From the NCBI RefSeq assembly GCF_001949145.1, contig NW_019091366.1:2899627-2963626 (forward strand): DNA of 64,000 nt, in the 5' to 3' direction. Origin of the DNA: Acanthaster planci (lineage: Eukaryota). A model generated the notes under the pieces. It made no database searches, was not told the origin of the DNA, and worked only from the letters and a program-made list of their open reading frames with translations. Of the stretch, positions 1 through 64,000 are shown piece after piece. A program made the position numbers and the translations under genes. The first letter of the stretch is position 1; every line of letters starts with the position of its first letter.

Positions 1-3000
1 AATATCCATACATGTACATGCAGCAACAGTTGGGTTTCTTGTATGAATTGTGAAAGTATTGATATAATAGAAGTCAATAAACCAAAGAAGTAAAAAAAAA
101 AAAACCACCCTCTCCACATAGAATAACCCTTAGCATGAAATACCGGTACATGTAGCACAGCGTCCCTTAATGTCCTTTTTGCAGAGTTGGTCACATATTG
201 ACATTATTATACGTAATGTCTTTGGCTTCCATGTGTCAAATATAGTTTGGGGTAGGACCTAGGCGAAAGTGTGTTTGATCCTTAGGATTTATTTTCCAAA
301 GTAAAATAAAATTGTTCAGGGGACTCTGTCTGCAATAACTTAATATTATACAATTATTGGGAAATTAATGTTGTATTGTGGCAACAGTGTACTTCCTGAG
401 TTTCAGTGAACTCTATACTATAGATAGTATTAAGCTTTTTTTCAGAGGGGTTTATAGAGGGTTCATGTATGTTAAATTTAGCCCCAGTTCCATGTATACT
501 TGGCTATTCGTGCACTATATTAGTAATATGATTGACTTTGACACCCACAGCTTCTCCATTTGGAGATCATGAGACAGTTCCTTGGAAACATGGAATTACC
601 TTGATTACCTGGGATATCATTCGACAGAAACTTGGAACTATCATCATATAAATGCATGCAGTAGCTACAATGATTATATTTGAAACTATCAAATAATGTT
701 TAAATGTAAATCAAGACAGTCAGTCCTTTATTTTACGTGAGACTTGCTTGACCAATCATGCTTGAGGGATTCCTGCAAGTTATGATTTCCACTAATTTGT
801 TAAAGCCCTTGGGATGGGCTGAAGGATAGAATTCACAATTCTCTGATGAGTCAAGTTGATTTACTGGTTAGAAGGAATATAGTCTTAGCACACGTACAAC
901 TGTACTTGTGACAGCTTTTTAGCTTCTAATCTACATGTAAATGAAGAAAGTGAAGGTGATTTGACACAGTGTAACACAATCTTGTGATAATTAGTTTTCT
1001 TAAGTTGCATCTGCATCCACCCCCCTTCCAAAACCCTACCTTAGTCATTGTTGAGTTCCTGTCCTACAATGATATAAGCATAAATATCACAGTCAGAAAT
1101 GTCCATTTTTATTTCTTGCCGTTAGTCTGTAACAGAAGACACTTTGTTGTATGACAGTGCCAGTATGCTTGTTGAGCAAACACACACTGGTTAAGGAATA
1201 TGTATTTCCACCAAACAGAAATATAAAGACTATAGTCAGGACACTGTTGGGTAGGGGGCCTTGCTCTATGCTCTGTGCCAAATATGTGTGAGCCCCACAT
1301 ATTGTGACTCCTTGCAGTTTGCCAGATATCTATATACATGTGTAAATGTTCGTAACAGTTCATTTGAAATGATCTCAGTTGGTTAATTTTTCAACTCTGT
1401 ATTCCTGAGCTTTGTTGAAAAGGACGAAGAAATCAGAGTTTTGGTATATGGTAAAATGGTATGCATTTGAACCATATATTGGTTATACTGCCCTCAGTTG
1501 GCTCAGATCACCTAGTCAATATCCCTGCCACATGTTGCAGGAGTTGAGGAGTTGAATGAAACAGCTGTGCACACAGTATGTGTTGGCTAATTGTCTTGGC
1601 TAGCAATTTGGTTAATACAAATTGTAAAAACAAACAGGGAATTGCAGCTTTTGGGACCCTTGTATCTTATAAATTGCTCTGAACCATTTTCACAAAAGTA
1701 CAATTGTAATTTATTTTGCATTGAGGGCTTGGTGAAGCATCATTAATTTTCCCAGAAAAATCGTCTGGTTGTTGAAAGGATACTGCCTATATTCTCAGTG
1801 GAGTTGAACATCACATAGATGATATTTTTAATGGAAAATATATTTAGACTTTGGGGTAAAATCAGCATGTACTTGTAGTTCTGTCAGGAATATTGTTTTA
1901 GTGGCAAGTTGTTTTGTTCTACACATTTCTAACAGTCATCTTTTAATTAATTGAAATGCACCATTTCAAGGCAACGATCATGGTGTTTTAGTTTACAGGA
2001 AGCGGTGTTTGTTACAGGAAGCATATTTTTTACAACAGCAGTCTTGTGTTTGTGAAGTTTTCAGTCTCAGTTTTATGATACATGTACATGTACCTACATG
2101 CTAAGGAATCATCCAGGTTATGTTATCTTCAATGATATCCATATTATACTGCTTTTATGTACAATGTTCTAGGGGGTTTTAGCAGGGTAGGCTGTCCAAC
2201 CAAAATTTTTACGCTGCCCCACTGAAGTTGAGCTGTGCAGCTTAATTTTTCATTGCTCTGCTACATAAGCAATACCAATACATAAGCAATAAGCAAGTAC
2301 ATGTAGTAGTATTTTCAATTTTCTTTTTGTGCCTTTTCTTTTGATTTTTACAATGAGCCTTTTTAACCAGTTTTAAAAGCTAATGGATTTGACAGAATCT
2401 ACCCTTTAAGGAAGGAGGAAAGAAAATGCAATAAAATCCTGGCTTTCTGGTTTGCTGCTTGCTTTACCAGTGTGGATTAAAGCCTGTCGCTGAGCGAGGA
2501 CAACAACTAATGATAGTTGATGGATAGCCACTCATTGGCTTTCGCCAGAGCCAGCCTTTCACTAGACTGGCAATGAGAGCCCTACTGTCTGCGTACATCT
2601 ATGTGTATCTATAGCTTATGCTGTCACCTCATCCAGCAGGGAGCTGTTAGTGTGTATACAGAGAGGTTAGGGGCTAGGATAGGTGAAAGGATGCGAGTAC
2701 CAACCCAACTCGTTGTGTTCAGTGTGATTGTACATGTACCTCAGAAAGTAGCCGTATTTGGTGTGATATTGCTTGGGCTATAAGTGCACAAAAAGAATGA
2801 TGAGTTTGGGGAATTGGGGATGGTTTAACCCCTGTCAGGCTTTTTGTCAGGCATAGTGATCAAATTGCACAGTGCAAGTGCATTCATAATTGTAGTAGTT
2901 CATATACATGCACATGCAGCTCACGCAATCACTTGTTTAGCAGGTGCAAAGGCTAAAGTAGCAATCAGTGGATGAGGCAGAAAAGATAAGGGGAGGAGCT

Positions 3001-6000
3001 CAGATTTGGCAGAGAGGTGATGGTGTCAGCTATCCGAATCATTGAACTTGGATTAAACCCTACACCTGCTGTAGTGCATGGCAGGTGGACAAGTCTTTTC
3101 CTATAATCCATGCATTTGTGGATGGGTAATGGAGACTGGGAGGAGCTTTGAGATAAACATGTGGGCATCCCTAAACTTGCCTTATATTATTCCCTCAAAA
3201 TATCTACATTTTAGGGCTGATTAATTGCAGGTGGCACAGCTTTAACCAATTTATCCTTCAAAGTTGGAAGAGAGTGCTTCAGTTACTACTGTGTGTCAGT
3301 TTCATTGAAATTGAATAAGCAGATGGTAAAGAGGGTTGATGGGGTCTTCAGGGAAGGAAGGGGAGTCTTGTTATTTTTTTTATTAATCTTGGGTTGCTGC
3401 AGATTCCTTTTAATCTCATGTTTGCTTTTAATGCTTCATGTACATGTAGTTCAAAGTACACGTATGTATCTTTGGTTGTGACCACCAGACCATGGACTGC
3501 TGTAAGTGAAATTGAGAGGAAGACATTGCTCATATTTCTGGAGCCAGCTTTGATTGGAAGATCGTAGAAGAGACACAGTTACACTCACTATGTAATGTCT
3601 ACATGCAAGTGTGACAAATTGCACAGATGACAGGTGCCTGGCATGTTCTGAGCAGGGTTTCTTGTTTACTTGTGCTGGCAGAGATTTTTTTTCAGATTCA
3701 CATTTTGGACATTAGTTACATGTAGCTTTCTTGACAAGCACATCCACCCATTGTAAAACCTAGCCTGAAGATACATCATATGATGTGTGTATGTAGCCAC
3801 CTACGTTGTGAAATCTTTCTTGAGAGGAATTCTCTCCCTGTCTTACAGAAGCAGGTCAGTGGCATTGCATGGCTTTACCATACCTTGACCGTCGATTGTC
3901 CCAATCCCAGCTGTTAAGATTCGCACCATTATGGGAAGCCACTCATCAGTTCTGTCTTCCAATTAGCATTGACAGATTCCATTCTGTTTTTCACTGAAGT
4001 CGGGTAGTCAGCTGTGTCAGAGTGTCACCTGTGGTTTCTGATGTTTCCTGACCCTTTATATGGTCAAGCACTCCACTGATGACTGAATGGGCTTCCCTGT
4101 AAATTGAGGCATTCAGCATTTCAGGGTGCCTTTTGTGACAAGGCTCAAATGATAGGGGTACTGAATATTTTTTTAATAAACTGAGAAATTTTTATGTCAA
4201 ATGTAGTAGAAATGTATTAAAATTCATGTTGGCATTATTATTATGAAGGCCCTGTTTTTTCTGTATTTCCCTTCGATTTCTTAATGGGTTCATAAACCTT
4301 AAAAATTAAGGTAGTTGAGATCATTTAACTCAAAATGGGTTAGAAAAAGATGTAGGTTGAGAAGTTTCTGGGATGTGACTTTCCAAATGGAAAAATATTT
4401 CCTTAAAATTGCTTTAAATGAGGAATCCTTCGAAAAAAAGTTTGTGAAATTTGTAAGCAAAACAGGATTAGAAATTCTGAAAATCCCATTGTATGTATGT
4501 CCGATTCCCCAAGTGTCTGAGTACCCTAACGGCTAAGGCCAAGCTGGCAAACATCCAGACTCATACATGTTCCAACATGAATGCATTTGATCCAATTTAA
4601 TGAGCACCAGCTCAGTCATCATACATGCCATATTCATCGTGCACCTACTCTGGCACACCCTGATTTTGACAGTGTATAGTGTATTCACAGTTTGACTAAT
4701 TCAAATCCTTGCTACAATGCTAATAACTTTGTGCATTCTGTAATTAAGAAGTCAAGGTTAAGTGGATGGATTGGATGTGTAGAGGATTCCTAATGAGTCT
4801 TTTATTAAACCTATGGTTGGCATAGGCAGCATCCCCCAAATAACCTTGTAGTGTACTGTGTGACTAATGTTATTTTTTTTGTCTTCAGTTGAATGTTGAA
4901 GACATTATTATACTGGTATGTTCTGTATTGTTTTGTCAAGTAAATATATGTATGTGTATACCTCTGTGTAGATAGAGAGCTGTAGCAGTTCATGTACAGT
5001 ATGAACTTACAGTTAGCTGTTTAAATGTTTGTGTTTATTATTGAATTGTAAAAGTCCTGAGAAAAACTTCAACAATTAGAAATTTCAAGCTATGTACATG
5101 TACTTACCAGTAGCTGGTAGGTTGTCTCCAAGGGTTTTGTGGTTGATTGAACTGCACATATAAAAATTAGAAAGAGGAAAAATTTAGATTTGAAGTAACC
5201 CCATAGATTAGAAAATAACCTGACTTGATTTATTTTATTAAGATGAAAAGAAAGGGTTGTAACATTCCTCCATAAGGCTTGTTTTCACACAAAGAGGGCA
5301 TTTTCCTATTGTGTGAACAGAATATTCCTGAGTATCCATACAGTTCTCTGCTCTAGAGCACCTGGTTTGTACAGGCAATTTTCAGCTTGGGACTGTTCCT
5401 GTACTCCCTTGATGAAATGACAGTGTTTCCACTGAATTCTTGAAATGTTCTGAATTGTTACAGGCTACAGAACCTTCATGCTGGTCATGCAGTTTACTCC
5501 ATATTTTCCCTAGGATCCAAGTCCGACTGGTTCCTTAGCAAAAAACACAGCCTAGCAGTTTCGGTGTTTCAAAACTAACAAGGAACATAGCCACGAGCAA
5601 TCAAAATGATAACACAATTTTCGTATCCCTTTTGATGACCAAAAATTATATCTGCTTGGCATATATGATAAGATTCTAAGTAGCTCCTTATTTAATTTGT
5701 ACCTTATCCAAGCAGTTATTCTCTTGTCTTCTATGTTCACACAAGTGTGCCTTTCTTTGATAGGGTGCTGCACTATACGGTGACTGTGTTTCTAAGGATT
5801 TAGCACCAGTCACCTATCCGTCTTACAAGAATTCTTATTAATTAGTCTGTCATTGAAATTTTTTTTATGTTAGCTAAAGTACCCAAGGAGTGTGAATTGC
5901 AAACTTCTGTTAGACACCACAAGTCACTGAACCCCCCCCTAACATTCTCCTTTCCCATCACCTCTTCGGACTGTTCCTGGATCGTAAGTAATTTGCCCCT

Positions 6001-8789
6001 CAAATTAATATCCAGTTTGGCCGTCATGGGCTGATACTGGGAGCCAGGCAAGATCTCCCACTGGTATCCCGAGGGGGGAAAGCTACTCGATTTGCCTGGC
6101 TTGGATTGATCTGAAGTGACACTACATTCATTTCACTTTGTGGAGCTGTGGCTGGGCTAATTTCAAGGGTTGTTCTATGCCAGTTTTGATATCATGCTGG
6201 TCACAAAGTAGCAGGTGTTAATAATGGTTGCTGGAGTTAACCTCTCTGTAGCATGCCATTTGAGATGGTAATTCAGATCAGTTTTTTTGTTTAATTTTTG
6301 TTTCTTGAAATAGTTTCTCTTAAATTTTTTTTTGTTTGCATGGAAAAGGCCTTTATTGGTACTGGAAGAGATCAAAGACAAGTGGAGATGTTTCTGCTTT
6401 TCCTAAAGAAACAACCAACAGGTTAACGTACCGGTACTGCAGCACCAGTTAGTAGTTACTTTCCAACATGAGTGCTTTAAGTGTGGAATATCTTGAAGCA
6501 TAATTTTATTTTCTGTATTGACCTGTCATTCAACAGTAGTTTTAGTTCTCTTCCGACATTAAAACATGCACAAGCTATGTACTCATGTGGAATGACATGG
6601 GCCCTACCTGACTGCGCTTCCCTGGCATACACAATGGTCTTTTTCATGTCTTTGTGAGTCTCCGTTTAACCCACCCTGAAAAAAGTGAGGCCTTGGAAGG
6701 TGGTGCGGTACACAACTGAAAATAATAAACAGTTGTGAAGTGTATAATCCAATTTTCCTTGGATATTTCTGCACCTCCATGCAAACACTTACATGGGGAA
6801 ACGAGGGCGTTTTGATGATGAATAATTGAATGTGTGAGGTAGGTAGGATGGTGAAGGGTAGAAGACAGATCAGGCTTTGAAATATTGATCAAGATGACGA
6901 GCTAGCACAGTTCTGTGGGGATGGAGTAGGCTTGCAAGCTTGCATCCCATTTATTTAGGTTGGACTGCGGCTCAACAGACCCTAAACTTTTGACCTGAAA
7001 AAAAAAATTGAGGGTTAAAAGATAAAGTTAAAAGCCAGTAGAAAATTGCAACTGACCCACACTTCAGATTGAAATATCTAAGACCTGTGCCAGTTGAACA
7101 TGTTTGGCATTTGTGCATTACTCAATGCCAGTACATGTAGATGGCAATAATTGTTCAGATTGGAAATGCGCAATTCATATTTTATCAGTGTTGTTACATG
7201 CTTTAATCTTTGCAGCTTTCCATATTTTGTCGTTTGTCTTAATCACGTAAAGGGATTACGGCAGGTTAGTGGTTAGTGAATGCAAGTAGCATAATATCTA
7301 CATGTACATGTACTTCTCTGTCTTGTTTGTATTTATACATGTTCATTTATACATTAAGGTATTTTATTCCCTGCTTGTGAGCACTTCATGGGGATCTATT
7401 AATTTAGCTCTGCTTACAAAGCATTAGCATTTATGCAGTTTTTATGTTATATATAATTTAATATCTCATGCTTTCTGTGAAATTCAGTTAGTTTCTGTTC
7501 CTGTCTCAAGTACTGCCAATATACCAGCCTCTCTTCCAGTTAAGCGCAGCAGCTCGGACTGTCCCTGTGAATCACCCTGTTGTGAACCATCACACATGCT
7601 GCCAACTCACACAAGTTACACAGCTAAATTCCACAACAGCTGTTGCCAAAACTATCATTGCTGTATTTACAAAAAGACAACTGAAATATTACCCTGAGGC
7701 AAATTTGTTTGCATCTTGGTTCTGGCATATTATATGTAAATATGTTGATTTGCTTGGACCGTTATATCGGTGCAGTCATATGTATATTTCAACTTAGCTG
7801 TGCTGTGTCTATTTCATATTATAGAGATTATACCAGGACGTTATGATTTGTGTTGTCACGCATATTTTGACTGTCTGTGAGTCTGGCTCTCAGTTTCATT
7901 TAATTGTTATAGACACACATCTGTGAAGTTAGCTAGTTCAAGAGCGGTTGATGCCCCTTGTAACTTACCATGAACAATCTGGACTTTTTACCTCCAGGCT
8001 TGTAATTTATTTTTGTGTGCTATTATTGTGTTTGAAAATTATCGGCAAGGCATTTAGCAAAATTGCACTTCATCAATTTGTAAATTTAACGTACCCTTTT
8101 AATTTTCATTTTTGTATGGAGTATCCTGATGTGAGGCATCAGGATGGTGGACCACAGTTTTTTTTTTTTTGCTTTTGTTGCTTCTTGCCCTATTTATGTG
8201 TTTTTTAAAATCTTGTCAAATAAATAATAATAGTAGTTGAACAGAAAAGAAGAAAACCATAAGGAGAAAAGTGTAAGTGTACATGTCTTTCCTCAAATAC
8301 AAATAATTTTCTTGACTAAATGTGGAATTTGACAAGGATTTGATAAATTAAGTAGAAGTTGTCATTGCAGTTCTTTTCATATTAGACATTTAAAAAATTT
8401 GAATTTAAATACTGACATTGACATTATTTTGGTTATTTCATGTGGTCATGACTGTATTTGAGAAAAACTACACAAACCATGTTCATCACTACCAGTATGT
8501 TTATCGCAGCCTTTTGCACCATAGGAAATAAGTAACTTATGTTTGGTATTACATGTATATGCATGTATAGCAACAGGTAGTTTCTGCATTGATAAGATAC
8601 ATATACATGTACAGTAGCATAATACAGACAGTAATGATTGTCTCTGTACATGGAGCTCAGATCTTTTCTTGGTACAAAGTGTTGCAGACAGTTGAACCAA
8701 TCAAATTGAGCTGGCTAAACAGGGGTTCCATTACCACTTTTGTCTCTAACCAGTCATCCGTGCAGTGCTTTTCATATGCAAATTGATAT

Positions 8790-8825
8790 GGGCGGTCGCA
8801 CATGGCACCCCAGTCAGCCAATCAG
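8790..8825 (+). promoter_or_regulatory. Candidate TATA-less promoter core. It has an Sp1-type GC box GGGCGG at 8,790-8,795 and an NF-Y-type CCAAT box GCCAATCAG at 8,817-8,825.
   Basis: Both motifs are exact matches and lie 22 bp apart. They sit about 240 bp upstream of the candidate ATG at 9,064. The orientation and target gene are uncertain. Confidence 0.2.
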
Positions 8826-9216: not shown

Positions 9217-10232
9217 GTAAGATATTGCCAAGCAAACTAAATTATTTTCAGTGTTGTTTTTTTTTAGGGTTTTTGATGCTAGGAAAAGAGGTTGAGGTGA
9301 TATGTCTGATATTGATAACACCGATGTTTGTGTGTGTTTGAAAGTGTGTTTTATGTGGCAAGGCGAAAGTAAAACAGACATTTTCATAGAATTGTTTTGA
9401 TAATGATCAGTGCCTTCCCACCTCAAATATTGGAAAGTGAGGTATGCATACTTGGAGGTTAACCTTTCATGCACATACATGCTTACATGTATGTTGGACA
9501 TACCACAGTATTTCAATATTTTCTAAACAACTCTCATGTTGAATGTTTGAAAGCCTTTTGGCTCGGTAAAATTTTATTCAGTAGGCTAATTTTTTGTGTT
9601 GTTTTTAGTTGAGTATTGTTGACAAGTTGAGATTGTCAGATCTATCTATTTTGATGGATATTTGAAATATTTGTTTTTACCTTCTACTCCATCGTTAGAA
9701 GTGTGAAGCATGAAAGTCAAATTGAATTGTGTTCTTATTGCATGATCTAGATTACATGCTTTGTAGACATACCCAAATATTGCTGTAAGACTGTATGTAC
9801 AGAGAAATGTAGGTACTTTACCTGTGGACATTTATATTTGCTTTACAAAGTCCATTGGAAGTCAAACTTTTAAAATAGCTATTCCGTTGGTGGATGTTAT
9901 ATGTACATGTAAATGTTACATTTCAAAGCGAAGAACAACTTGTAGATTTTCCCCTAATGCTTGTGGTCCTCGGAACTTAAAAATATAAGACAGTCCCAAA
10001 TCCTCCAATTTTAATATGATTTTACACCCTAGGGGTTAGGGTTAATTTGTTGTATTGGTACATGTATGTGTGTAGGTGAGCTACTTCACGTAATGTAGGC
10101 CTCAAATACTGTAAAATCAATTCCATGAAGAAATTACCATTTGAACTCATTTTGTGGAATGTGATGTTTATAATGTTTGGTTGGTTATTTGAGTTTATGA
10201 TGTAAAATATTTAGAAACATACTGTAAAAAGG

Positions 10233-10303
10233 ACACAAAACTATTTTTATATCACATGAAACAAAAGACACAAAACTATTTTTATATCACATGAAACAAA
10301 AGA
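10233..10303. repeat. Direct tandem duplication of a 35-bp unit, ACACAAAACTATTTTTATATCACATGAAACAAAAG x2.
   Basis: The two copies are exact and adjacent. Confidence 0.85.
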
Positions 10304-13300
10304 CAAAATTTGTATTTTTTCTAGTGATTGCTGTAATTGGACATCAAGATCTGGTGTTAGCATAGCAATATGTTAGCTCACAGAGTACGTAAGCATTTGG
10401 CAGAATGAAGACTAGAGGTTTTCTAATCAAACTATTGAAATGGGATTAAGCTACAGCACAACCTACTGTAACAAACACAGTGGGTTCACAGAAAATGTTT
10501 GTTATATGGTCATTGGGCAAAGAGATTTTCAGTTGCTGATGCAACCATTCTCAGCTCTGGCCCGTTCAAATGTGTAGCAGCCTGCCGTACGAATGTTTCT
10601 GCACGAGGATTTTAGATCAACACTTCCAATGCAAAAAGCTATAACACAGTAATTGTGCATTTTCTTCAATATATTTTAAGTTCCCTCCCATATTTCACCT
10701 CTCGGTTCTCAATGAAAGTCAAATCTTGAAACATATGAACCCATGAGTCTCCCATGAGTTATCAACATACAACACAGTTACACCAGTTCCTTCTGTTAAA
10801 ATAGAATTATAATAAATGCAGATGTGCCGGGAACCATTCTATAGCACTGAATTTGCAGTGGCATAGGACTGAAGTAGCCAATATCAGTCGGCTTACATGA
10901 AACTTGAACTAAATTTGTAAATTATTTAACAAAGATTTCCGCAAGTTAAGTCGCAAAAGTTCATCTGTTTATCGCTGTGTGTATTTTTGGTATTGATAAT
11001 TTTTTTCAAGGTAGAAATCCTTGCCTTGTTTCAGTAACAAGTATAAGATTTGCCTCATTTAAAGAGTGGCCCATTTTGCATGCACATACATGTACATACA
11101 TATATGTACAAGTGCTGGGGTGGGTGGTCTACATGGATACCAATTTATGCACACGAATAAAATGGACTCTGCCACTTGCTGACCATTGTTACTTTGCAAG
11201 CAAGATTTTCCTTTAGTTTCAAGTCATTATCATTGCTAAGAAAATTTCTTTCATTTAGAGCAAATTTTAAGTGTTTGGTAAAAAGTGCACGGAAAATTCA
11301 GGAATCGAGGGACCTAACTGGTATAGCTGATTGCTCGGTTTAGTGGTGTTCAGTATAGTGAATGTTGTACTGTATATGAAATGAACTCGCCACTAAAAGT
11401 TGCCAAGTCATATGAATTGCTTTCTCTCCATATAGAGAGTTTGCATGGCTGCCATCTTTGCACGCCAGTACTTTTGTTCTGTAGGGTATGTGCAAAGGAC
11501 GTTTCCGTATGGAACAACACAACTTCCCTGCGAGATGGCTACTGTGCAAAGCTTCTATACAATTTCCCAAAGGAGCTTTTGTGTTCAGCCAAATTGTTCA
11601 GCCAATTTCAGTTGATCCTAACAGAAACACATTCAAATTTCTGGATACATAAATTTGTATGTGTAGGTATAACGTTATGATTCGAAATTTTGAATAAAAA
11701 CTAATGACTCAATCAGTGTACGTATCCAACTGTCCACGAGTTGTCAATGGTGCGTATGTACTCATAAATGACAGCGGCAGCAACCTGTCATCCTGGATTT
11801 AGATTAAAACTAAACCATCTAAATTCCTGTTATAAAAATTAGTCAATTTTGTGCTCTGATCCCACACAGTTCATTTGATTTGTACCTGTAATTACAAGAT
11901 CACCTGTCCACAAGGTCATCAATTCATCTGCAAGTTACCTATTGAAAAGAAATACATAGGATGTAGGTAGTATATGGCATGAATGGAGTTTTTCTTCGAA
12001 TTGATCCGAGAGTCAGTCTTAGGGTATCTCCCATCGAGATAGTTATTCTTGTATGATGTCACCAATTCAATCAGTGTTTTAATGAGGAATTTGGATTAAT
12101 GATGTACATCATGGCAGTCATTATCAGGTCACTCAGATCTGATAGCAGGTGGTTTTAACAGGTGGGACCCTAACACACTGTTAATGCCACAGCTTGAAGT
12201 GTGAGAACTGAGCAAAATTCAGGTATTCAGAAAATATGCTTAAGAAATAATACTGTAGCTCATCAATCCAACAAAAGCTATTCCGAGAATACAGTGGCAA
12301 AAATTCAAAGAGGTGCAAGACATACTTGTTACTTTCCTAAGACATGACCAAAGGATTTGAAAACGGAAAATTCAATGTGTCAGGAGGATTCTCGTGACTG
12401 TTCTCACAGTTGTGGAAATTCATGTGCATTCGTAGAACATCATGAAGGTGTTCGTACAGACAGTTCAGGGTGTAAATTGATAACTAATGGGAAACACTGG
12501 CAAGAATGTGTTGTATAGTGTAATCATCTTGACCTTTGATCCTGCAGTGCTCGACTTGTGAGCATCATTTTGTCTACCTTTTGTCCAGTAGAAAGGGTTG
12601 TTTCCGAACTTCAGATCTCATGAAATGCAGCTCTGCCTATCATAGAGTTGACCTTAACAGAGGCAAAAGTGGCTGAATTATCCAGTGGGGATGTCCAGAG
12701 AGGGTGTGTAGTTGGCAAGCCTAGTGTAATATTGTGATGTTACCGTATGCGTAATGATGGATGCGCATCACCTGCCCCACATCAATAAAACAAGATGAGT
12801 GGAGCGATCGCTGCATGCGTGTAATGCCTGTACTACTTGGCCTGTCTTACCTCTCAGAAGCAACCAGCTTGTAATTATCCTTGAGATAAAGTGTAATGAA
12901 ACCGGTGATGCAGGGCACCGATATTAAAATTTAATGATACCGAATCCCCCTCCATATGGCATAGAAAGGCTGTACCTTTGGCTGTACACTAAATGCCCAT
13001 TACTAGAAGGCCATTTGGACTGAAGATTATTCCCAACCATTTACCATTTATGCAGAGAAAAAGTGCATTGCAATTTATCAGCATAAATACTTCTGGATAA
13101 TTTTTTTACCAGAAGTCATTTATGTAGCAACTCTAGCATATATCTAAACTTTATCAAAATTTATTGGGCTAATCCATCAGCAATCTTTGATTAATTTGTC
13201 TGGAAAAAATTGGAAAAGGACCATTTAAAACAGCCAAATACTCTTAATTTTAATGTGACCTGCATGTGGAATATTTTGCTTGGTCAAAAGCTTCATGTAA

Positions 13301-14596
13301 ATGGCGTTATAAGACAAATCATGAGATTAACACTTTTTTCATCGCAAATGTAGGTAGCATGAGTTTTTCCATCATTTTTTATCACAGAGGATGCCAAAAG
13401 GTAATTGATTGAAAAACTTAAGAAAGAGAAAGGAATATGTGAAAATTTTCTCAGCTGAGTCAAAGTGATGAATTTATTGATTTATTTAAGTTGTGATACT
13501 TAGTGAGTGATAAATTGCCGGCTGATTGTGATCCAAACCAAAACCCATTTTTCATCTTGTAAAGAAGAAGTTGCGGCTAGTCTGGAAAAAAGCAAATATA
13601 AACAGCGTTAATAGCTGGCTGTGCTGAAATTGAAAGCAAACAAATGTTATAGGAGTTGCTGCTTTTTATCCCTTGCTATTATCAAACACATCAATTAAGG
13701 TATTATATACAGCTTCTTGCTTTGACCTGTTGCAGGCTTTGGTTAATGTGTAATTGTGTTATCTTTGGGTGAAGGTGGTCCACGTGGCAGTGTACAAATC
13801 AAGTTTGATATCTCTTGGCAGTTCGTGGGAATATGTTTTTGTGAATCACATTTTAAAGTCAAAATGGAATTTTAAACTAACTTGTACATGTATGTGTGAT
13901 TGATGTGACTATATGTGGAAATAGGAGTAATGTTTATAGGAATTAGAAGTTTTTCATGTGTTTTTGGTTCAGGCTTTTTTTCTTCTGAAACCATTTCTTG
14001 CATTTGCTATTATGTGCATCTTTCAAAACTGAAGGGGATACTGTTTCTGTCTTTTTTAAGCTGGTAACCTTTTCTAGTCTGGGTTTTCTAAAGTAACCCT
14101 CCAGAAATCAAGCATACCTTTAAGTTTGAGAAAATATAATTTTCATGGATTGTCTTAAGATCGAAATGTATGAATTCTTTTGATACTTGAAAACTTTCTG
14201 CATAATTTTGTACTGTAGCATTAAGATAAATTAAGTTTCAGTTGGCAAAGAATTGACTTTCTACAGCAAGTCATAGTGCTCCTCTACTTTTCCTAATAAA
14301 TTGGATACGTTCTCAACTACCTCCTGATGCCAAAATAATTCTCCAGATGCACAATGTCATGTTGGCTCTGTGCGATCCTTGTCAGAAGTGAGCATTACTG
14401 TCTTTGACAGTGAATTGCAAGCATTTGAACATAAACAAAGAAAAAATTAGACAGATTTTGACAAGGTCAAAACCTTTGTTAATATTGAGCTTATAGGCAT
14501 GATGAACTTGTACAAAGTGAAGAACATTGTCTTAATTTTTTCGTATTTTGTAATTCTTTGTATTACTGTGCATACGAAAGTAGTACAAATGAATTA

Positions 14597-14690
14597 CATA
14601 CATGTACATGTCTGTAGGTGTTACATACATGTCTGTAGGTGTTACATACATGTGCCTTCAGTGTTACATACATGTGCCTTCAGTAGTGAG
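14597..14690. repeat. Short tandem duplications, GTGTTACATACATGTCTGTAG x2 followed by TGTTACATACATGTGCCTTCAG x2.
   Basis: Direct adjacent repeats are visible in the sequence. Confidence 0.8.
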
Positions 14691-32724: not shown

Positions 32725-32776
32725 GATATCAAAGTAAACTGGGCTACTACACCAAGTGCAAAAAAAGATACCAGTG
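32725..32776 (+). CDS. TIA1: TIA1/TIAR-like exon (equivalent to human TIA1 exon 4). It encodes DIKVNWATTPSAKKDTS, the C-terminal end of RRM1, and ends in phase 1.
   Basis: A polypyrimidine tract and CAG acceptor end at 32,724. A GTAAGT donor sits at 32,777. The translation DIKVNWATTPSAKKDTS aligns to human TIA-1 EVKVNWATTPSSQKKDTS. The junction codon g|gt (Gly) joins the next exon in frame. Confidence 0.85.
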
Positions 32777-39479: not shown

Positions 39480-39700
39480 TGCGGTACCTGCTGCTACATC
39501 TGATTCGAAACCAGCCAGCCGACACCAGCAAGCTTGGTGGTCGAGTGGTTCAGACTTCTGCACTAGTAAGCAGGAGGTTGTGGGTTTGAGTCCCACCCGA
39601 GTACACTTTTTCACAGGCCTGGGGGGGGCATACACTGAGCATACAGTGTTAAAACTACACGTTGGGATGTTAACCAGAGTGAGCTTATGCTGAGATTACA
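39480..39700 (+). mobile_element. tRNA-derived SINE insertion in a TIA1 intron.
   Basis: The tRNA-like head gcttGGTGGTCGAGTGGTTcagact...GGTTTGAGTCCCACCcgag carries Pol III A-box (TGGTCGAGTGG) and B-box (GGTTTGAGTCCC) motifs. A non-tRNA body follows. A second B-box-like GATTCGAAACC sits just upstream at about 39,500. Confidence 0.55.
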
Positions 39701-42723: not shown

Positions 42724-42811
42724 GTCATCATCATATATTTGTTGGTGATTTAGACCCTTCTGTAGAGACAGCTGATCTCTATAATGCCTTTTCCGTTTAT
42801 GGAACTATTTC
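42724..42811 (+). CDS. TIA1: TIA1/TIAR-like exon (human exon 6 equivalent). It encodes (G)HHHIFVGDLDPSVETADLYNAFSVYGTI(S), which is RRM2 beta1 with the RNP2 motif IFVGDL.
   Basis: The acceptor ...ctttactacag| ends at 42,723. A GTAAGT donor sits at 42,812. The product aligns to human [30 protein letters not shown]. The phase (1 in, 2 out) is consistent with the flanking exons. Confidence 0.9.
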
Positions 42812-47465: not shown

Positions 47466-47722
47466 ATGTACATGTACACGTAGAAGGTTTACATGTACAC
47501 GTAGAAGGTTTACATGTACATGTAGAAGGTTTACATGTAGAAGGTTTACATGTACATGTAGAAGGTTTACATGTACACGTAGAAGGTTTACATGTACACG
47601 TAGAGGGTTTACATGTACATGTAGAGGGTTTACATGTACATGTAGAAGGTTTACATGTAGAAGGTTTACATGTACACGTAGAAGGTTTACATGTACATGT
47701 AGAAGGTTTACATGTACATGTT
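47466..47722. repeat. Minisatellite of about 13 copies of the 21-bp unit TACATGTACA(C/T)GTAGAAGGTT, with two truncated 15-bp copies.
   Basis: The tandem periodicity is visible directly. The ORF-track entry 47462..47767 (EGLHVHV repeats) is simply its translation. Confidence 0.95.
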
Positions 47723-53585: not shown

Positions 53586-54115
53586 GGGTGGGGCCTGGGT
53601 GGTGCCGATTAGGGTTTGATAGCTCTACATGTTGGTGGGACCTGAGCTCATTGGTGTTGAGTGTAAGTATGGTAGAATGAGCCCTTAGTAGATTAGGGTG
53701 GGGCCTGGGTGGTGTCGATAAGGGTTTGATAGTTCTACACGTTGGTGGGACCTGAGTTAATTGGTGTTGAGCTCAAGTGTTGTAGAATGAGCCCAAAGTG
53801 GTTTAGGGTGGGGCTGGAGTGGTTTAGGGTGGATCCAGAATGATTTAGGGCAGAGCTGAAGTGGAAAGAGTGGAGCTGGAATGGATTGGCATTGGGGCCA
53901 AAGGGCACAAAGGTGGGGCCTAGGGACATAAGGGGGCCCTGAAGGCTTAAATTCAAGTGCATTATGGGGAGGTCTTGGATCTGAGAAGAGTAGGGTGAGG
54001 CATTCGTGGAGTAGGCTGGGTTCTTGGTGTGATGGGATGGAGTTTAAGTGCAGAAGGGTGGGGCTTACTGTGCAGTGGTCAAGCTTGAGTGAGGTTAGGT
54101 CTGAGTGGGGAGAAG
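53586..54115. repeat. G-rich tandem repeat. It has two copies of a 110-bp unit (GGGTGGGGCCTGGGTGGTG...GAATGAGCCC...) followed by a degenerate array of about 20-25 bp built on GGGTGGGGC and GTGG.
   Basis: The two units span 53,586-53,695 and 53,696-53,805 and are about 90% identical. Shorter degenerate repeats (gtttagggtggggctggagtgg and similar) follow to about 54,115. The run is GT-rich on the + strand. Confidence 0.8.
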
Positions 54116-54703: not shown

Positions 54704-54782
54704 AGACACACGCGTTGTGAGAGATCCCACAAAAGAAAACCGATCAAAGGGATATGGGTTTGTCTCCTTTGAAAAGGAAGAA
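54704..54782 (+). CDS. TIA1: TIA1/TIAR-like exon (human exon 7 equivalent). It encodes (S)[26 protein letters not shown], which is RRM2 with the RNP1 motif KGYGFVSF.
   Basis: The acceptor tttctttacag| ends at 54,703. A GTAAGT donor sits at 54,783. The product aligns to human [26 protein letters not shown]. The exon ends in phase 0. Confidence 0.9.
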
Positions 54783-55751: not shown

Positions 55752-55854
55752 GAAGCCAAAAATGCCATCAAAGCAATGAATGGTAAATTTCTTGGTGGCA
55801 AAATCATCCGTACAAACTGGGCAGTACGTAAACCTTCAGAGCAGAAAATAGAGA
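55752..55854 (+). CDS. TIA1: TIA1/TIAR-like exon (human exon 8 equivalent). It encodes EAKNAIKAMNGKFLGGKIIRTNWAVRKPSEQKIE.
   Basis: The acceptor tctttcaccag| ends at 55,751. A GTAAGT donor sits at 55,855. The product aligns to human [35 protein letters not shown]. Confidence 0.9.
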
Positions 55855-56210
55855 GTAAGTTTCATAGTTTGTTTAAATTTTTAGACAAATGATTCTGTTG
55901 TTATTGTGCTGATAGCAAAGTTTGGAAGAGTTAAACATTAGATTCAGCCTTGTGCAAGTGAATAGATTAAAAATACTGTGACATAATTCAAGTATAGGAT
56001 GATTGCTGAAATAATACCAAGCTTCTTTTTATGTAAAAAAGAAAAATTTTGAGATTGGAGATTATTTCACTTCCAAATATTCCATCCAATATGTACATGT
56101 ATGTTACATTGGCCAGATAAATGCATGCATTCAGACTTACAGTTAAAATGATTTGAATAAGGAGTTAGTTAGGCAGTTGAAAATTAATCAGTCAGTTTCT
56201 GTTTTCACAG

Positions 56211-56294
56211 CAAAGTCACATGAGGAGGTGTATAATCAGGCAAGTGTCAACAATTGTACAGTATACTGCGGTGGTATTCAAAATGGGATGTCAG
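56211..56294 (+). CDS. TIA1: TIA1/TIAR-like exon (human exon 9 equivalent). It encodes (T)[27 protein letters not shown], the inter-RRM linker plus RRM3 RNP2 (VYCGGI).
   Basis: The acceptor ctgttttcacag| ends at 56,210. A GTATGT donor sits at 56,295. The product aligns to human [32 protein letters not shown]. Confidence 0.9.
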
Positions 56295-57826
56295 GTATGT
56301 TGTTATAACATTATTTTTATAGGAATTACATGTATATGTAAGTAATGTACTAAAATGTACAAACAGGAAAAATTGTGCACCTGTAGAAACATTACATTAC
56401 ATGTGTGTACCTACCATGTGAGTTCAACCCTTCCACTTAGTTTGTGTGCATGTGCTAAAATTCGGTAAAGTCGTGGTCACTTTCTGTTGCTTTTGAAAAT
56501 GGTGACGCCAGCCAGCAAATGACTATACCAAAATCCATCTGCAGAGATCTTCCGCATTGTGTAATGTTTGCCGAATTTATTCCAGAGAAATATAATCAGG
56601 CTTCAGATTTCATTTTGTGACGTGTTTCTTGTTAATCATAAGTGACATTTCGGAGAAAATAGGGTTAAAGATGTCTGCTCATGTATTTCTGAACATAAAA
56701 AAGGGTATTATTAAATTGAAATTTTGTTGTCCGGTTTTTCCGCACATGCTGCAAATCTTGGTAATTGAAAGAGTGTTTTAAAAAGGATCCCATGTTATGT
56801 TTAAGCTATTGCGAATTGTCCTTAGTTTTATCAGTTTCAACTCTGGCTCTGTGTTTAATGATGGTCGACCATGATTTATGTGTACACACGTACATGTACT
56901 CCATCAACGCACGTATTCATGCACTACTTTGGACAAATGATTCTCGTGCAAAATATTAAATTTGCAATAACGTGAAAACACTATCGATTTTTTATCGGGC
57001 CTTACTACACACCACACTTTTTTTGTTTGTTTGGATAAACTGGAGAAGTGGTTATAAAATGGGACAGACCATGGATGTATTTTCTTTCAAATCTGATCAT
57101 TTTTAATCACTTTTTCAGTATTTGTTTCACATTTTTTGCAACTGGGTTCATAGAATACGGTGACATAAGTTGTCTAATAAATTTTTAGTTAAAATCAGGT
57201 TATCTCTATGAACATTAGTTGTTTGTCAGTATTTTGTTAAAAATAAATTATGGTCTCTATCTGCGGAAAGAAGTTTCGGAACGGTGTCCCATGTCGCCTG
57301 CTCAAAATCCACAGTAAAGTGATCGAGTGTGCATGTGCTAACTCCCAGTTAAGTGGTGCACAAAGGTGTGGGAGTGAATTTACGTGCCACATAAACATCG
57401 TTGTTTACTTGATGTGCAGTTGATTTCATTTGATCTGGTGACATAAATTACAATGTGTTTAGTATGCTCTTAAATATTCACTGCTTTTAGTCATGGAAAT
57501 GTAGAAGTATTGCACCTAAGACCAGCCAGGAATTTTTTAGGACAGTAATTTTAAGATTGTTTACTAGAAGACACTGACTCTTTGTATGATCAGACCTGCT
57601 GGCTTTTAGAGGTGGAAATCTTTTCTAGTTTCCATCTGCAATTTCATTTCTGAGACCCTGATCAAAGTAATCCAATAAAACTGCACTCGGAAACCAAGAA
57701 TAGCTTGCGGACTTGATCTGCATTGTTAATTCAAAACCCATTAATTTCACTGGATTTTCCCCCGTTTTCTGAGCTGACACAGTGAACTTATGAACTCTTA
57801 CCTTGTCTGGTTTGCATTTTAAACAG

Positions 57827-57911
57827 AAGAATTACTACGCCAAAGGTTTCAGGAGTTTGGTACCATACAGGAGATTAGGCAATTTCCAGAAAAAGGTTAT
57901 GCATTCATTCG
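57827..57911 (+). CDS. TIA1: TIA1/TIAR-like exon (human exon 10 equivalent). It encodes (E)[27 protein letters not shown](R), which is RRM3 with the RNP1 motif KGYAFIRF.
   Basis: The acceptor gcattttaaacag| ends at 57,826. A GTAAGC donor sits at 57,912. The product aligns to human [29 protein letters not shown]. Confidence 0.9.
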
Positions 57912-58390
57912 GTAAGCAGACCTACTATAAGAATGTTATAGAAGTAAGCCTTGACTGGATATAGTAAGCTAATAATATTGACTAGCTGTAATCTTCATGG
58001 TGAAGGGTGCTGTAAGAAGTTGGCATTCACTCTCATTTACTGGGATTGATTATCAGCCTGAAGTATTAAGTGCATGGCAGCAGTTGATAGATTTTAATGA
58101 TCAGACTGTGAAATGAACCACAAGCTTAATAACTGCAAAGTTCATGTGCTAGTGCAGGTCACCTGAAATCAAGTCGTAGTTGTGAATTTATAAAGAAACA
58201 TGAAACGTTGTCACTTCAAGCATTTTTGGTAATGAAAGTTATTGCATTGAAAAACATTTTAGTGCTTCTTTTTCTTCGGTTTTTTTTATAATGTTTTGGC
58301 AAATGCTGTGAAGTTTATTCCTCAATGTTACATTTTTATTTAGAGTTCCTGATTACAACTTGAGATAAATTTCCTAATTTTTTGTTTCAG

Positions 58391-58514
58391 ATTTGCATCT
58401 CATGATGAAGCCACTGCAGCCATTGTTGGTGTGCATAGTCAGCTTGTTGGCAACTACAAAGTCAAATGTTCGTGGGGGAAAGAAACGCCATCAGAGCCAT
58501 CAGCTCATGTTCAG
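58391..58514 (+). CDS. TIA1: TIA1/TIAR-like exon (human exon 11 equivalent). It encodes (R)FASHDEATAAIVGVHSQLVGNYKVKCSWGKETPSEPSAHVQ, the end of RRM3.
   Basis: The acceptor ttttgtttcag| ends at 58,390. A GTATGA donor sits at 58,515. The product aligns to human [41 protein letters not shown]. Confidence 0.9.
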
Positions 58515-61500: not shown

Positions 61501-62286
61501 CATTCTTTAGGTAGATTTTATTTGAAGAGTGGCTTTGAATTATTTATTTGTTTCATTTAAAGTGTTTGTTTTATTCAGCGTGGACAAACAATCCCGACCA
61601 CTTACCCTTTATGGTGAAGACGTCTTGTATTCTGCAGATTTGATTTTTTAACATTTTATATTTATTTTCTACAATAGAAATTATACTAGAAATAGATATA
61701 ATTTAAACTCTGTTTCCTTGGAATATGAATTGCCGGAGTGTTTTCCATAACATTTCTGAATGAAAGATATTTATTAACTTGTTTTGATGAAATTTCTGAT
61801 ATCAAGGAAATAGCTTGTCTTTTTTTGTTCAAAACAAGATTAATCACCGAAATTAGAAGGAAGCTAATCTATAAAGGATGTGAAAGCTGTCAAGTGTAGT
61901 GACATGGCAGTGGTACATGATTGGTTGCAGTTTCATTGTATTTCCCATCAGAACTTTCATTGTGAATTTCCTGTGGATAAATTTTAATCTGCCCTGAAGT
62001 CACATTCAGTGAATGCAGCTTTAACCAGTCATCTGGCCTGTTTACCAGCATTATAAGCATCTCTTTTTGCCAGTTGTAGGATGTTTAAATTACATTTATT
62101 TGCAGAAAGTCCAACTGTAGGAATTGCGATAGTTACAGTTGGTGATGTTAAAATCTGTTGGATTTCTCCCAGCAGTAGTTATTTCTTAAGTAAAATCATA
62201 CTTCCATGTCATTTCCATTCATTGTTTTCTCAAAGTGAACTAACTGTCATTAAATTGTTGGTTCTCATTGATTTCATTTGACACAG

Positions 62287-62468
62287 CAGCAACAGCAGTA
62301 TGCATATCAAGGCTTTGCTACCTACCCGCAGCAAGCTGTACAGCAAACACAGCAACCTAGCCAACCATACGTTCACTATTTCAACCAGCAGTTTCCTGCT
62401 GGACAACAACAGCAATATCTGCAGATGACGCCCTCAACACAGGCCACATACTACTATAACTATCCACA
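62287..62468 (+). CDS. TIA1: TIA1/TIAR-like exon (human exon 12 equivalent). It encodes QQQQYAYQGFATYPQQAVQQTQQPSQPYVHYFNQQFPAGQQQQYLQMTPSTQATYYYNYP(Q), a Q/Y-rich prion-related domain.
   Basis: This is a tandem NAGNAG acceptor (acaCAGCAGcaa). The first AG ends at 62,286 and the alternative AG at 62,289 would give a start at 62,290. A GTAAGT donor sits at 62,469. The composition matches the TIA-1 prion-related domain, which is Q/Y/G-rich. Phase is 0 in and 2 out, consistent with the next exon. Confidence 0.85.
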
Positions 62469-62930
62469 GTAAGTGCCAAAACTGTTGGAATTTCTGAGAA
62501 TTGTTGGGAAACTCAGAACTGAAAACTTTGTTATTTACAAATCTTAAGCTCCTTAGAATTCACAGTGTCATGTGCCATTAAATTTTTCCAAACCTTTTTG
62601 AGACTTTGAGAATTTTTATCATGCACTATGGGCACTTGAGGATACTTGACAAGATCACACACACCTGGGCATGAAAATAACAAATGATTTGTTAATCTGT
62701 GTTAGAGTGGTTGATTTGACATCATGGAATTTGGGAAATGATCTTTGCTTAGTAAGATTCGTTGTAAAAGTTTTCTTCTTGGACAAATCTTACACATACT
62801 CTAAAATTAAGTAAAAAGAATTGACAAGCTGCAGTGAGGGTTTGTGTTTTTGATAGTATAACCCTGCGTGTGGCTGTAGGGCTTGTCTTTGGCTGTGACT
62901 GACTTGACTCATTTCTTGTTCTTGCTACAG

Positions 62931-63126
62931 AGCGTCAGGTATGGTTATGCAAGGGCAGTATGTACAGAGCCAGTACCCCCAAGGACAAACTGTTCAACAG
63001 ACTCAGTATGCTCAACAGACCCAACCCATTTCAGCTCTTGGACAAGGCATGGCTCCAAGCAGAGGGCTCATGACGCCTAACTCATCCCAAGGAAATTATA
63101 TGCATACTGGCTTCCCAACTCAATAA
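62931..63126 (+). CDS. TIA1: TIA1/TIAR-like terminal coding exon (human exon 13 equivalent). It encodes (Q)ASGMVMQGQYVQSQYPQGQTVQQTQYAQQTQPISALGQGMAPSRGLMTPNSSQGNYMHTGFPTQ followed by a stop.
   Basis: The acceptor ttcttgctacag| ends at 62,930. The frame is maintained from the previous exon (ca|a gives Gln). A TAA stop sits at 63,124-63,126. The Q-rich content matches the TIA-1 C-terminus. Confidence 0.85.
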
Positions 63127-63844: not shown

Positions 63845-64000
63845 AAGGGTTATTTGTCAATTTTTGGATATCGACTGATGTTACTAGCTTGCCTGGGTTG
63901 AAGACATCTCTTAACAGCAAGCAACATAGGGAGAGACATGCAGACGCTCTGTGTACTGTACTTTAGTTATGTTTCTGGACATTCCACACACTTGTACTTT

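Follow-up and report, generated by a model that had tools for sequence, protein, structure and literature searches.

The 64-kb stretch of DNA analyzed here (the window) is predicted from sequence similarity to hold most of a TIA1/TIAR-like gene of an animal, read from the plus strand, and has a GC content of 37%, a CpG observed/expected ratio of 0.30 and an excess of CA/TG. Nine exons were mapped by tblastn, the query being a TIA1 sequence (Table 1), and 229 TIA1/TIAR homologues were matched at E ≤ 1e-10 (best 2.8e-70), with identities of at most 61%. No exon was found within 1–32.7 kb, where strand skew is the one indication that the DNA is transcribed. Other features of the locus are a minisatellite, a short tandem repeat and a single miniature element of the MITE type; microsatellites are otherwise almost absent.

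Throughout this region, the palindromic octamer TACATGTA is heavily over-represented. Specifically, the window contains 92 exact copies, as compared with 1.74 ± 1.5 expected from dinucleotide-preserving shuffles (largest shuffle value, 8). The minisatellite accounts for 18 of these, and masking it leaves 74 copies at 68 independent loci versus 1.94 expected under a first-order Markov model, a 38-fold enrichment that makes TACATGTA the top-ranked 8-mer. CATGTACATG is present in 18 copies versus 0.13 expected, and the commonest 6-mer in the window is CATGTA/TACATG (280 copies), followed by A6 (238 copies). Over-representation of the octamer had been claimed in the original prediction, and the k-mer counts uphold it at the level of the window, lying far above the expectation from both shuffled and Markov backgrounds; the example coordinates given at that stage all fall within ~10 nt of true sites (Table 1).

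The dispersed copies are spaced in a roughly Poisson manner (exponential fit to the gaps between loci, KS p = 0.64), with densities of 1.28/kb at 1–47 kb and 0.49/kb at 47.7–64 kb. None was found in the nine mapped exons, and the copies around these exons are therefore intronic; an intronic location, as originally proposed, thus holds around the exons mapped at 32.7–63.1 kb. The sequences flanking the dispersed copies bear no relation to one another, and self-BLAST of the window revealed no interspersed family of two or more copies. The earlier description of a dispersed micro-repeat is borne out by these observations, whereas an origin as copies of one repeat family (a SINE, a MITE or pieces of a satellite) was rejected, as similarity stops at the core. 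A promoter element of the Phytophthora type was also rejected, since the copies are spread over 60 kb at exponentially distributed intervals and surround, or fall between, the exons mapped for a single gene.

Table 1. Coordinates of the features discussed in the text (positions within the window)
Feature	Position	Strand	Remarks
TIA1/TIAR-like exons (approximate)	32725-32790, 42726-42812, 54705-54770, 55752-55854, 56216-56300, 57823-57912, 58389-58514, 62270-62469, 62931-63126	+	tblastn; stop 63124-63126
Dispersed exact TACATGTA, start positions, first part	9, 147, 932, 2079, 2085, 2298, 2731, 3441, 3717, 5095, 7132, 7299, 7305, 8550, 8604, 8984, 9484, 9904, 10059, 11087, 13885, 14599, 14733, 14743, 15429, 15632, 16221, 16375, 16618, 16624, 20250, 21035, 21075, 22683, 24142, 25567, 27366, 28372, 29396, 29417, 30310, 31613, 31915		exact match outside minisatellite
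Dispersed exact TACATGTA, start positions, second part	32163, 32438, 32615, 33111, 33127, 33379, 33578, 34277, 34757, 34898, 34904, 35038, 35660, 37174, 38307, 38754, 38856, 39849, 40529, 40535, 42589, 43834, 44733, 52194, 55037, 55133, 56094, 56327, 56891, 58658, 58817		exact match outside minisatellite
True sites for the originally listed examples	9, 2079/2085, 3441, 7299/7305, 14599, 14733/14743, 16618/16624, 25567, 29396, 32163, 32438, 33111, 33578, 34898/34904, 38856, 40529/40535, 52194, 55037, 56891
Dispersed doublets TA(CATGTA)2	2079-2092, 7299-7312, 16618-16631, 34898-34911, 40529-40542
Composite TA-CCGG-TA-CATG-TA	141-154		two different scar-like hexamers with one common TA
Composite TA-CTGG-TA-CATG-TA	15626-15639		similar to the composite at 141-154
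Composite TA-CGTG-TA-CATG-TA	30304-30317		CpG-containing variant beside perfect copy
Mirror of TA-CGTG-TA-CATG-TA	32615-32628
Minisatellite	47469-47721		21-mer unit TACATGTACATGTAGAAGGTT, 12.6 copies
Short 21-22-bp tandem repeat	14594-14684		one unit with extra CATGTA: TACATGTACATGT versus TACATGT in sister units
MITE, TA/CAGTGGAACACT...TGTGTTCGACTG/TA	47775-47950		176 bp; TA target-site duplication and CAGT...ACTG termini (Tc1/mariner type)

With respect to the motif itself, the dispersed copies share the extended consensus A-N-N-TACATGTA-N-N-T(G). T is found at +3 (equivalently, A at −3) with a frequency of 0.69 versus a background of 0.31 (p = 1e-20), G is favored at +4 (0.34 versus 0.19, p = 1e-5) and A is scarce at +1 (0.10, p = 1e-9). 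The preference for T(+3) is independent of +1/+2 (0.68–0.71 whether or not +1 is C), the left and right flanks are statistically independent of each other, and the flank preferences are independent of hexamer continuation. Moreover, the signature is limited to the complete octamer, the frequency of T(+3) being 0.34 after any TA and 0.40–0.43 after partial words. The initial view of the motif as an 8-mer core with variants was therefore correct as to enrichment, but missed a wider site with position-specific A(−3), T(+3) and G(+4). A fold-back or hairpin-generated palindrome was rejected in turn, as the count of complementary flank pairs at each of positions 1–8 is what the marginal frequencies predict.

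Internally, TACATGTA is exactly TA+CA+TG+TA and is unique among all TA-NNNN-TA words. The junction is exact: TACA-N0-TGTA is 38-fold enriched, as compared with only 1- to 6-fold for spacings N1–N4 and 0.5-fold for the reversed order TGTA-TACA. Together with its flanks, the site reads ANN-TA-CATG-TA-NNT, and would thus correspond to the published Tc1/mariner target consensus split by TA+CA+TG+TA. For Sleeping Beauty this consensus is ANNTANNT, with A(−3) and T(+3) as the best-conserved flank positions at ~0.6 bits (PMC8934666; PMC2756404), and for Tc1 it is CAYATATRTG (PMC9635669). The match is partial, as +1 favors C and not the T of the published consensus sequences. Copies per available TA range 21-fold, from 0.062 at ANNTANNT sites to 0.017 where just one side conforms and 0.003 where neither flank does. 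The copies are accordingly tied to TA target sites in ANNTANNT context, contrary to the initial impression that they were not tied to any one feature. Perfect copies are also accompanied by a halo of decayed ones in which transitions dominate, with one-mismatch transitions being 2.8- to 11-fold and transversions 0.7- to 3.1-fold enriched. The excess is ~64 variant copies versus 72 perfect copies, and corresponds by our estimate to roughly 10% neutral decay.

The MITE lies 54 bp from the minisatellite, has a terminal inverted repeat matching at 10/12 positions and is 75% identical to a metagenome locus (L045:393-496); TA-flanked CAGTGG... elements were found in contigs L045 and L087 of the metagenome. 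The CA/TG bases of TACATGTA match the terminal bases of this resident element, of which one copy was seen. The minisatellite itself had been described as 47.4 kb in size, when in fact the array is 253 bp long and located at 47.47 kb. Its units differ by exactly one 6-bp CATGTA and include 15-bp units without one CATGTA, as well as units with TACACGTA. Among the period-21 rows of the short tandem repeat, one has 30% indels.

In terms of origin, we assign a probability of roughly 0.5 to the proposal that the majority of TACATGTA copies were left behind as excision footprints by cut-and-paste elements of the Tc1/mariner superfamily that insert at TA and have 5′-CA...TG-3′ ends. Such an element would insert at TA, preferably in A-N-N-TA-N-N-T context, and duplicate it. 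Excision by staggered cuts, presumably offset by 2 nt, would then leave the last two bases of each transposon end attached to the adjoining flank (TA-CA and TG-TA), and end joining that retains both overhangs would convert the original TA into TA-CA-TG-TA, a net gain of 6 bp. Tc1/mariner excision is known to generate 2- or 3-nt 3′ overhangs, the footprint being the overhang sequence between TA duplications (PMC3878927; PMC7827188), and natural Stowaway footprints consist of TA, 1–4 terminal bases and TA, with re-insertion at an old footprint documented in Triticeae (PMC1925063). Both TAs of a scar would automatically sit in good ANN-TA or TA-NNT context, which would make the scar a preferred target for the next insertion; a second cycle could give TA(CATGTA)2 or, where a family ending in CC...GG is involved, a mixed array of the type TA-CCGG-TA-CATG-TA. 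Since cut-and-paste movement does not raise the copy number of an element, scars could far outnumber resident elements. A weak point of the proposal is that the window holds only one clear TA/CA...TG element versus 68 scar loci, and this ratio of roughly 70:1 would call for long-lasting hit-and-run activity. The original suggestions of a remnant of a highly amplified element or of a repair hotspot would point in the right direction if the copies are transposon excision scars from end-joining repair.

Doublets and composite arrays of the kind described are present in the window (Table 1). The five dispersed doublets compare with about 3–7 expected, as calculated from the per-TA rates, if scar TAs are re-used at the ANNTANNT-type rate. 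A second scar-like word, TACCGGTA, has the same TA-xy-y′x′-TA architecture as TACATGTA and is 29-fold enriched (4 copies), with its CpG-decay forms TACCAGTA/TACTGGTA being 4.7-fold enriched (9 copies). A TACATGTA copy is found no more than 11 nt away from 4 of these 13 sites (binomial p = 2e-4). For TACCGGTA, A(−3) and T(+3) each have a frequency of 0.75, but with n = 4, and no CC...GG-ended element to match it was found.

Some observations fit excision footprints less readily. In C. elegans Tc1, the best-studied 2-nt system, +4 products (TACATA/TATGTA) rather than +6 make up 73–78% of somatic footprints (PMC12632400), whereas +4 words are only 1.5-fold enriched in the window versus 38-fold for the +6 word. 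The canonical Sleeping Beauty type, TAC(A/T)GTA, is 3.5-fold enriched, with the flank signature on one side only. Also counting against footprints, (TACATG)n in contigs of other organisms behaves like an ordinary microsatellite. We tentatively entertain a more far-reaching form of the proposal, in which a long-lived Tc1/mariner-type transposase cycled so often that the +6 scar, TA to TACATGTA, came to dominate genome k-mers (~1/kb, ~70:1 over elements), with re-use of ideal scar targets seeding (TACATG)n arrays.

Slippage provides an alternative source of the octamer that we regard as unlikely, namely a hexanucleotide proto-microsatellite (cryptic simplicity) in which slippage-prone (ACATGT)n arrays, favored in this lineage, arise, contract and decay, leaving relics of 1.3 to 2.3 units everywhere. 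Enrichment is indeed seen for each of the six 8-nt windows of (ACATGT)n (for example ACATGTAC 27-fold, CATGTACA 14-fold and ATGTACAT 13-fold), half-sites continue with CA in 28% and with full CAT in 21%, and alternating pyrimidine–purine 8-mers are 2.9-fold enriched as a class. The 6-bp unit differences in the minisatellite and the short tandem repeat also favor slippage, as do at least 120 metagenome contigs with (TACATG) arrays of at least 3.3 units, among which homologous contigs differ by one 6-bp unit. However, 63 of the 68 loci consist of one octamer each (1.33 units), no dispersed run is longer than 15 nt, and the only true array is the 21-bp minisatellite, in a window with hardly any other microsatellites. 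TACATGTA is also 2.3-fold commoner than the GTAC-centered ATGTACAT, and the 'arrays' thus begin and end at TA. Moreover, T(+3) is still 0.67 where +1/+2 differ from CA, with +1 and +2 then near background, a pattern that decay of CATGTA units cannot give, and slippage leaves both TACCGGTA and its adjacency to TACATGTA unexplained.

Selection on a functional palindrome is, in our judgment, more doubtful still. Here a dimeric protein (such as a BEN-domain or domesticated-transposase protein) would recognize the 14-bp ANNTACATGTANNT, or the palindrome would pair in long-intron RNA. A symmetric, PWM-like profile with independent half-sites is consistent with this type of role, and precedents exist: the human NACC1 BEN domain binds CATG motifs and was crystallized on TTACATGTAA (PMC11472053), in Phytophthora, TACATGTA is an established promoter element bound by Myb (PMC11134190; PMC3597505), and HIP1 of cyanobacteria (GCGATCGC) offers a case of an 8-bp palindrome that is highly iterated (PMC4390886). 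Against this, the motif, at 1.2 copies per kb, Poisson-scattered in introns and lacking promoter association, is much denser than binding sites usually are, the predominance of transitions in the halo points to neutral decay, and no reason is given for the architecture common to TACATGTA and TACCGGTA. Finally, it is very improbable that TACATGTA is a by-product of heavy CpG methylation, through deamination of CpG-containing precursors (TACGCGTA, TACACGTA/TACGTGTA), as the null models already preserve dinucleotide content and the proposal merely shifts the question to precursor abundance (no copies of TACGCGTA and just 6 dispersed ones of the single-CpG forms) and leaves TA ends and flank signature unexplained, despite the low CpG ratio, the excess of CA/TG and the 11-fold enrichment of TACACGTA/TACGTGTA over their own low expectation, with copies in arrays and minisatellite units.

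If the scars are real, the region records dozens of past transposition events that are invisible to ordinary repeat annotation. Cut-and-paste elements could then rewrite a genome's k-mer spectrum and introduce many 6-bp insertions, and their scars could influence where later insertions fall and give rise to a specific microsatellite. The motif would also serve as a practical gauge of past transposase activity and of how end joining turned out in a non-model animal. Sustained transposase cycling, if true, would amount to a mutational signature driven by transposase and to a mechanism by which a microsatellite of many marine eukaryote contigs is born. Should the 14-bp palindrome instead prove to have a function, it would parallel, in a eukaryote, the cyanobacterial highly iterated palindromes.

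Compared with known systems, the sites resemble footprints of Tc1/mariner elements, including Stowaway-type MITEs, in having a duplicated TA around a few terminal bases and flanks with the target consensus, and in the presence of a TA-flanked CAGT...ACTG MITE in the window. Known Tc1/mariner footprints, however, are heterogeneous, and usually keep one overhang (Tc1) or are a 3-nt microhomology product (Sleeping Beauty), whereas here a single +6 product dominates. A footprint-like word that is the top k-mer of a region, at ~70:1 over resident elements, was not found in any report in the searchable literature. The (ACATGT)n microsatellite has the same unit and the same 6-bp length steps, both in the window minisatellite and in metagenome contigs, but most loci here are single TA-bounded octamers with position-specific, non-repeat flanks. 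Like HIP1, TACATGTA is a dispersed 8-bp palindrome present about once per kb, far above expectation; HIP1, in contrast, is prokaryotic, occurs both inside and outside coding regions and has a link to cognate methyltransferases. The Phytophthora promoter element bound by PsMyb37 and the CATG site of the NACC1/NACC2 BEN domains have a core identical to TACATGTA, yet are sparse, regulatory and near promoters in other lineages, whereas the copies described here are dense, intronic where exons are mapped and free of positional association.

With respect to abundance, the 8-base palindrome TACATGTA (TA-CATG-TA) occurs 92 times in the 64-kb window, as against 1.74 ± 1.5 copies in dinucleotide-preserving shuffles (shuffle maximum, 8), and CATGTACATG occurs 18 times where 0.13 copies are expected. 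When the minisatellite is masked, 74 copies are observed against 1.94 expected from a first-order Markov model, a 38-fold excess that ranks first among all 8-mers. These 74 copies represent 68 independent loci with mutually unrelated flanks. The commonest hexamer of the window is CATGTA/TACATG, with poly-A behind it. The massive over-representation claimed in the original prediction is thus borne out, the counts in the window lying far above both shuffled and Markov backgrounds, and the example coordinates offered with it are right to within about 10 nt. The excess is confirmed to be neither a chance nor a composition effect.

Several simpler identities for TACATGTA were rejected. It is not a piece of a longer repeat, as its flanks are unrelated and self-BLAST of the window returned no interspersed family with two or more copies. 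Nor does it reflect a general excess of palindromes, since TACATGTA and ATGTACAT supply nearly all of the excess over expectation, and once these two are taken out, the remaining palindromic 8-mers show hardly any enrichment as a class. Derivation from (CA)n or (TA)n microsatellites was likewise rejected, as the window has almost none of either. Binding sites for p53, E-box or bZIP factors presumably do not apply either, given a misfit of core or flanks.

In terms of location, the gaps between TACATGTA loci fit an exponential, and density is 1.28/kb over 1–47 kb versus 0.49/kb over 47.7–64 kb. The window itself has 37% GC and is strongly depleted in CpG (observed/expected, 0.30), and its + strand is skewed: of 32 two-kb segments, 31 have more T than A and 30 have more G than C. 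Together, skew and depletion fit a single long transcription unit that is methylated, as in a transcribed animal gene. Exons were mapped by screening for splice sites and ORFs and then by tblastn with a TIA1 query, which located a TIA1/TIAR-like gene (see table). The joined exon translation matches 229 TIA1/TIAR proteins (best E-value 2.8e-70), from arthropods, vertebrates, molluscs and amphioxus among others, and the conserved RRM exons show 45–61% identity to TIA1/TIAR across many phyla of animals; with top identities of no more than 58–61% and matches spread over several phyla, there is no close relative among them. No database homologue was found for the Q-rich C-terminal exons, no RRM1 exons were found upstream of 32.7 kb, and a Pfam search of ORFs of at least 60 aa over about 37–64 kb found nothing. 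Since no TACATGTA lies in any recognised exon, the copies within 32.7–63.1 kb are intronic, and to that extent the predicted occurrence in introns holds. No exons were found in 1–32.7 kb; the strand skew suggests that this part, which may be intron or upstream sequence, is also transcribed.

Coordinates of features located in the window
Feature	Position	Strand	Remarks
TIA1/TIAR-like RNA-binding protein gene	32725-63126	+	nine exons mapped, introns about 10-12 kb
Q/Y-rich C-terminal exons of this gene (two)	62270-62469, 62931-63126	+	
TACCGGTA sites	141, 6429, 16172, 44742		
TACCAGTA/TACTGGTA sites	4911, 5105, 8490, 14697, 15626, 16563, 34994, 45771, 53227		
Minisatellite	47469-47721		253 bp, unit TACATGTACATGTAGAAGGTT, 18 TACATGTA copies
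MITE	47775-47950		176 bp, TA duplication, CAGTGGAAC.../...GTTCGACTG ends (CAGT...ACTG)
Weak TA-flanked candidate	49580-49863		CAGG...CCTG ends, 10/12 terminal match; simulated sequence gives the like
Inverted repeat	18126-18304		35-nt arms (80% complementary, start TTTTTGTGTCCCTGG), 109 nt apart
tRNA-like sequence	39531-39604	+	Rfam tRNA 33.5 bits; continues to about 39690 as non-tRNA sequence
G-rich 110-bp tandem repeat, then 21-bp repeat	53586-53850		2.2 copies, 86% identical; without TACATGTA
A-rich 35-bp tandem repeat	10228-10305		2.2 copies, 97% identical

The conserved site extends beyond the octamer. Pooling both sides of the palindrome (n = 148 half-sites) and counting bases outward, we observed T at +3 in 69% of half-sites versus 31% background (p = 1e-20) and G at +4 in 34% versus 19% (p = 1e-5), while +1 is seldom A (10%, p = 1e-9) and prefers C. 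From these preferences, the full site reads A-N-N-TA-CATG-TA-N-N-T(G). Only the complete octamer carries the T(+3) signal: after TA in general the corresponding frequency is 0.34, after TGTA it is 0.38, and after CATGTA or ACATGTA without the outer T-A it is 0.40–0.43. The junction is exact, with TACA-N0-TGTA enriched 38-fold versus 1- to 6-fold for N1–N4 spacings, and TGTA-TACA standing at 0.5-fold. Left and right flanks are statistically independent, which rules out fold-back palindrome growth. Enrichment of one-mismatch variants is found mainly among transitions, and these variants resemble neutrally decaying copies, with decay estimated at roughly 10%.

The best-supported mechanism, to which we assign a probability of about one-half, is that the TACATGTA copies are accumulated Tc1/mariner-type excision scars with re-use of the scar TAs. 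The extended site is the published TA-specific Tc1/mariner insertion consensus, split mid-way: the Sleeping Beauty logo has the consensus ANNTANNT, with A(−3) and T(+3) as its best-conserved flanks at about 0.6 bits (PMC8934666; PMC2756404), and the Tc1 insertion consensus is CAYATATRTG (PMC9635669). Excision of Tc1/mariner elements produces 2- or 3-nt 3′ overhangs, the footprint being the overhang sequence between duplicated TAs (PMC3878927; PMC7827188). An element with 5′-CA...TG-3′ ends, excised with a 2-nt stagger and with both overhangs kept, would leave TA-CA-TG-TA. Each TA within ANN-TACATGTA-NNT would then offer a favourable target context for a second insertion at the scar, and many hit-and-run events could pile up scars while element copy number stays low. 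The observed frequency of TACATGTA per available TA is highest at ANNTANNT sites (0.062), drops to 0.017 where only one side matches and reaches 0.003 where neither does, a 21-fold fall, and five TA(CATGTA)2 doublets were counted versus about 3–7 second insertions expected from per-site rates.

A second palindromic octamer, TACCGGTA (TA-CCGG-TA), shares the TA-xy-y′x′-TA architecture of TACATGTA and is enriched 29-fold despite its CpG; its CpG-decay products, TACCAGTA/TACTGGTA, are enriched 4.7-fold. Among the 13 sites of these two kinds, four abut a TACATGTA (p = 2e-4), and two shared-TA composites are present, TA-CCGG-TA-CATG-TA and TA-CTGG-TA-CATG-TA. These findings agree with the excision-scar reading, as do the exact junction, the transition-biased variants and the resident MITE.

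With respect to source elements, the window holds one clear matching element versus 68 scar loci, so the scars would have to accumulate from many hit-and-run events; such accumulation at low copy number plausibly suits cut-and-paste elements. When the window was searched for TA-CA...TG-TA elements bounded by long terminal inverted repeats, only motif-to-motif matches came up, and relaxed criteria yielded the MITE and the weak candidate listed in the table. Metagenome contig Ga0209456_10009281 (L045) carries a TA-flanked CAGTGG... element with 75% identity to the MITE, and another contig, L087, holds a similar one, so the family seems to be shared between different organisms among those sampled. 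The inverted repeat at 18 kb may be a further MITE, from a different family. The tRNA-like sequence, for which ARAGORN gave an undetermined anticodon, resembles a tRNA-derived SINE head more than a functional tRNA gene; Rfam otherwise gave only sub-threshold miRNA noise over motif-rich spots.

An origin of TACATGTA as a hexanucleotide proto-microsatellite, (ACATGT)n, seems unlikely, even though all (ACATGT)n windows are enriched, the minisatellite units differ by 6-bp steps, and a (TACATG)3.3 query found (TACATG)n arrays in at least 120 metagenome contigs, homologous contigs being one unit apart. Such an origin leaves unexplained the predominance of single octamers, the TA boundaries, TACCGGTA, and the independent T(+3)/G(+4). 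Specifically, T(+3) is independent of hexamer-repeat continuation: its frequency is 0.68–0.71 whether or not +1 is C, and 0.67 in the 106 half-sites without a CA start, where +1/+2 are near background. The metagenome arrays of at least 20 nt (L001–L120) come from marine, polar-lake and host-associated contigs of 29–67% GC. Extra TACATGTA copies are enriched 8- to 15-fold in their flanks, embedded, unlike the window pattern, in (TA)n/(TATG)n simple sequence; with flanks this ordinary, these contigs do not replicate the window signature. Only one of the at least 120 contigs resembles the window, through the MITE, and the minisatellite junction had no match in the metagenomes. TA-flanked CA...TG MITEs also occur in several array contigs (e.g. 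L023, L045, L065 and L087).

A protein-binding palindrome, with ANNTACATGTANNT as the putative site, is possible, as the BEN domain of NACC1 binds TTACATGTAA, TACATGTA is a promoter element in Phytophthora, and cyanobacterial HIP1 provides a precedent; a neutral origin is nonetheless favoured by how densely the copies occur, by their Poisson scatter away from promoters and by the transition halo. Decay of CpG as the source of TACATGTA is highly improbable, explaining neither the excess over dinucleotide-preserving nulls nor the flanks.

Compared with known systems, the excision-scar reading shows likenesses but also differences that weaken it, as does the scarcity of matching elements. At +1, published Tc1/mariner consensus sequences have T, whereas C is preferred here. 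In C. elegans, 73–78% of somatic Tc1 footprints retain one overhang, as the +4 words TACATA or TATGTA (PMC12632400), whereas these words are only 1.5-fold enriched in the window; the Sleeping Beauty product type, TAC(A/T)GTA, is enriched 3.5-fold, with a flank signature that is one-sided only. Given the weakness of both word types, host end joining would need a bias toward keeping both overhangs. The searchable literature describes no region whose k-mer spectrum is dominated by a single kind of footprint, and a genome-wide TACATGTA excess in animals is not reported in searchable full text. Excision footprints themselves are already known: natural Stowaway footprints consist of 1–4 terminal bases between two TAs, and an old footprint is documented to have received a new insertion (PMC1925063).
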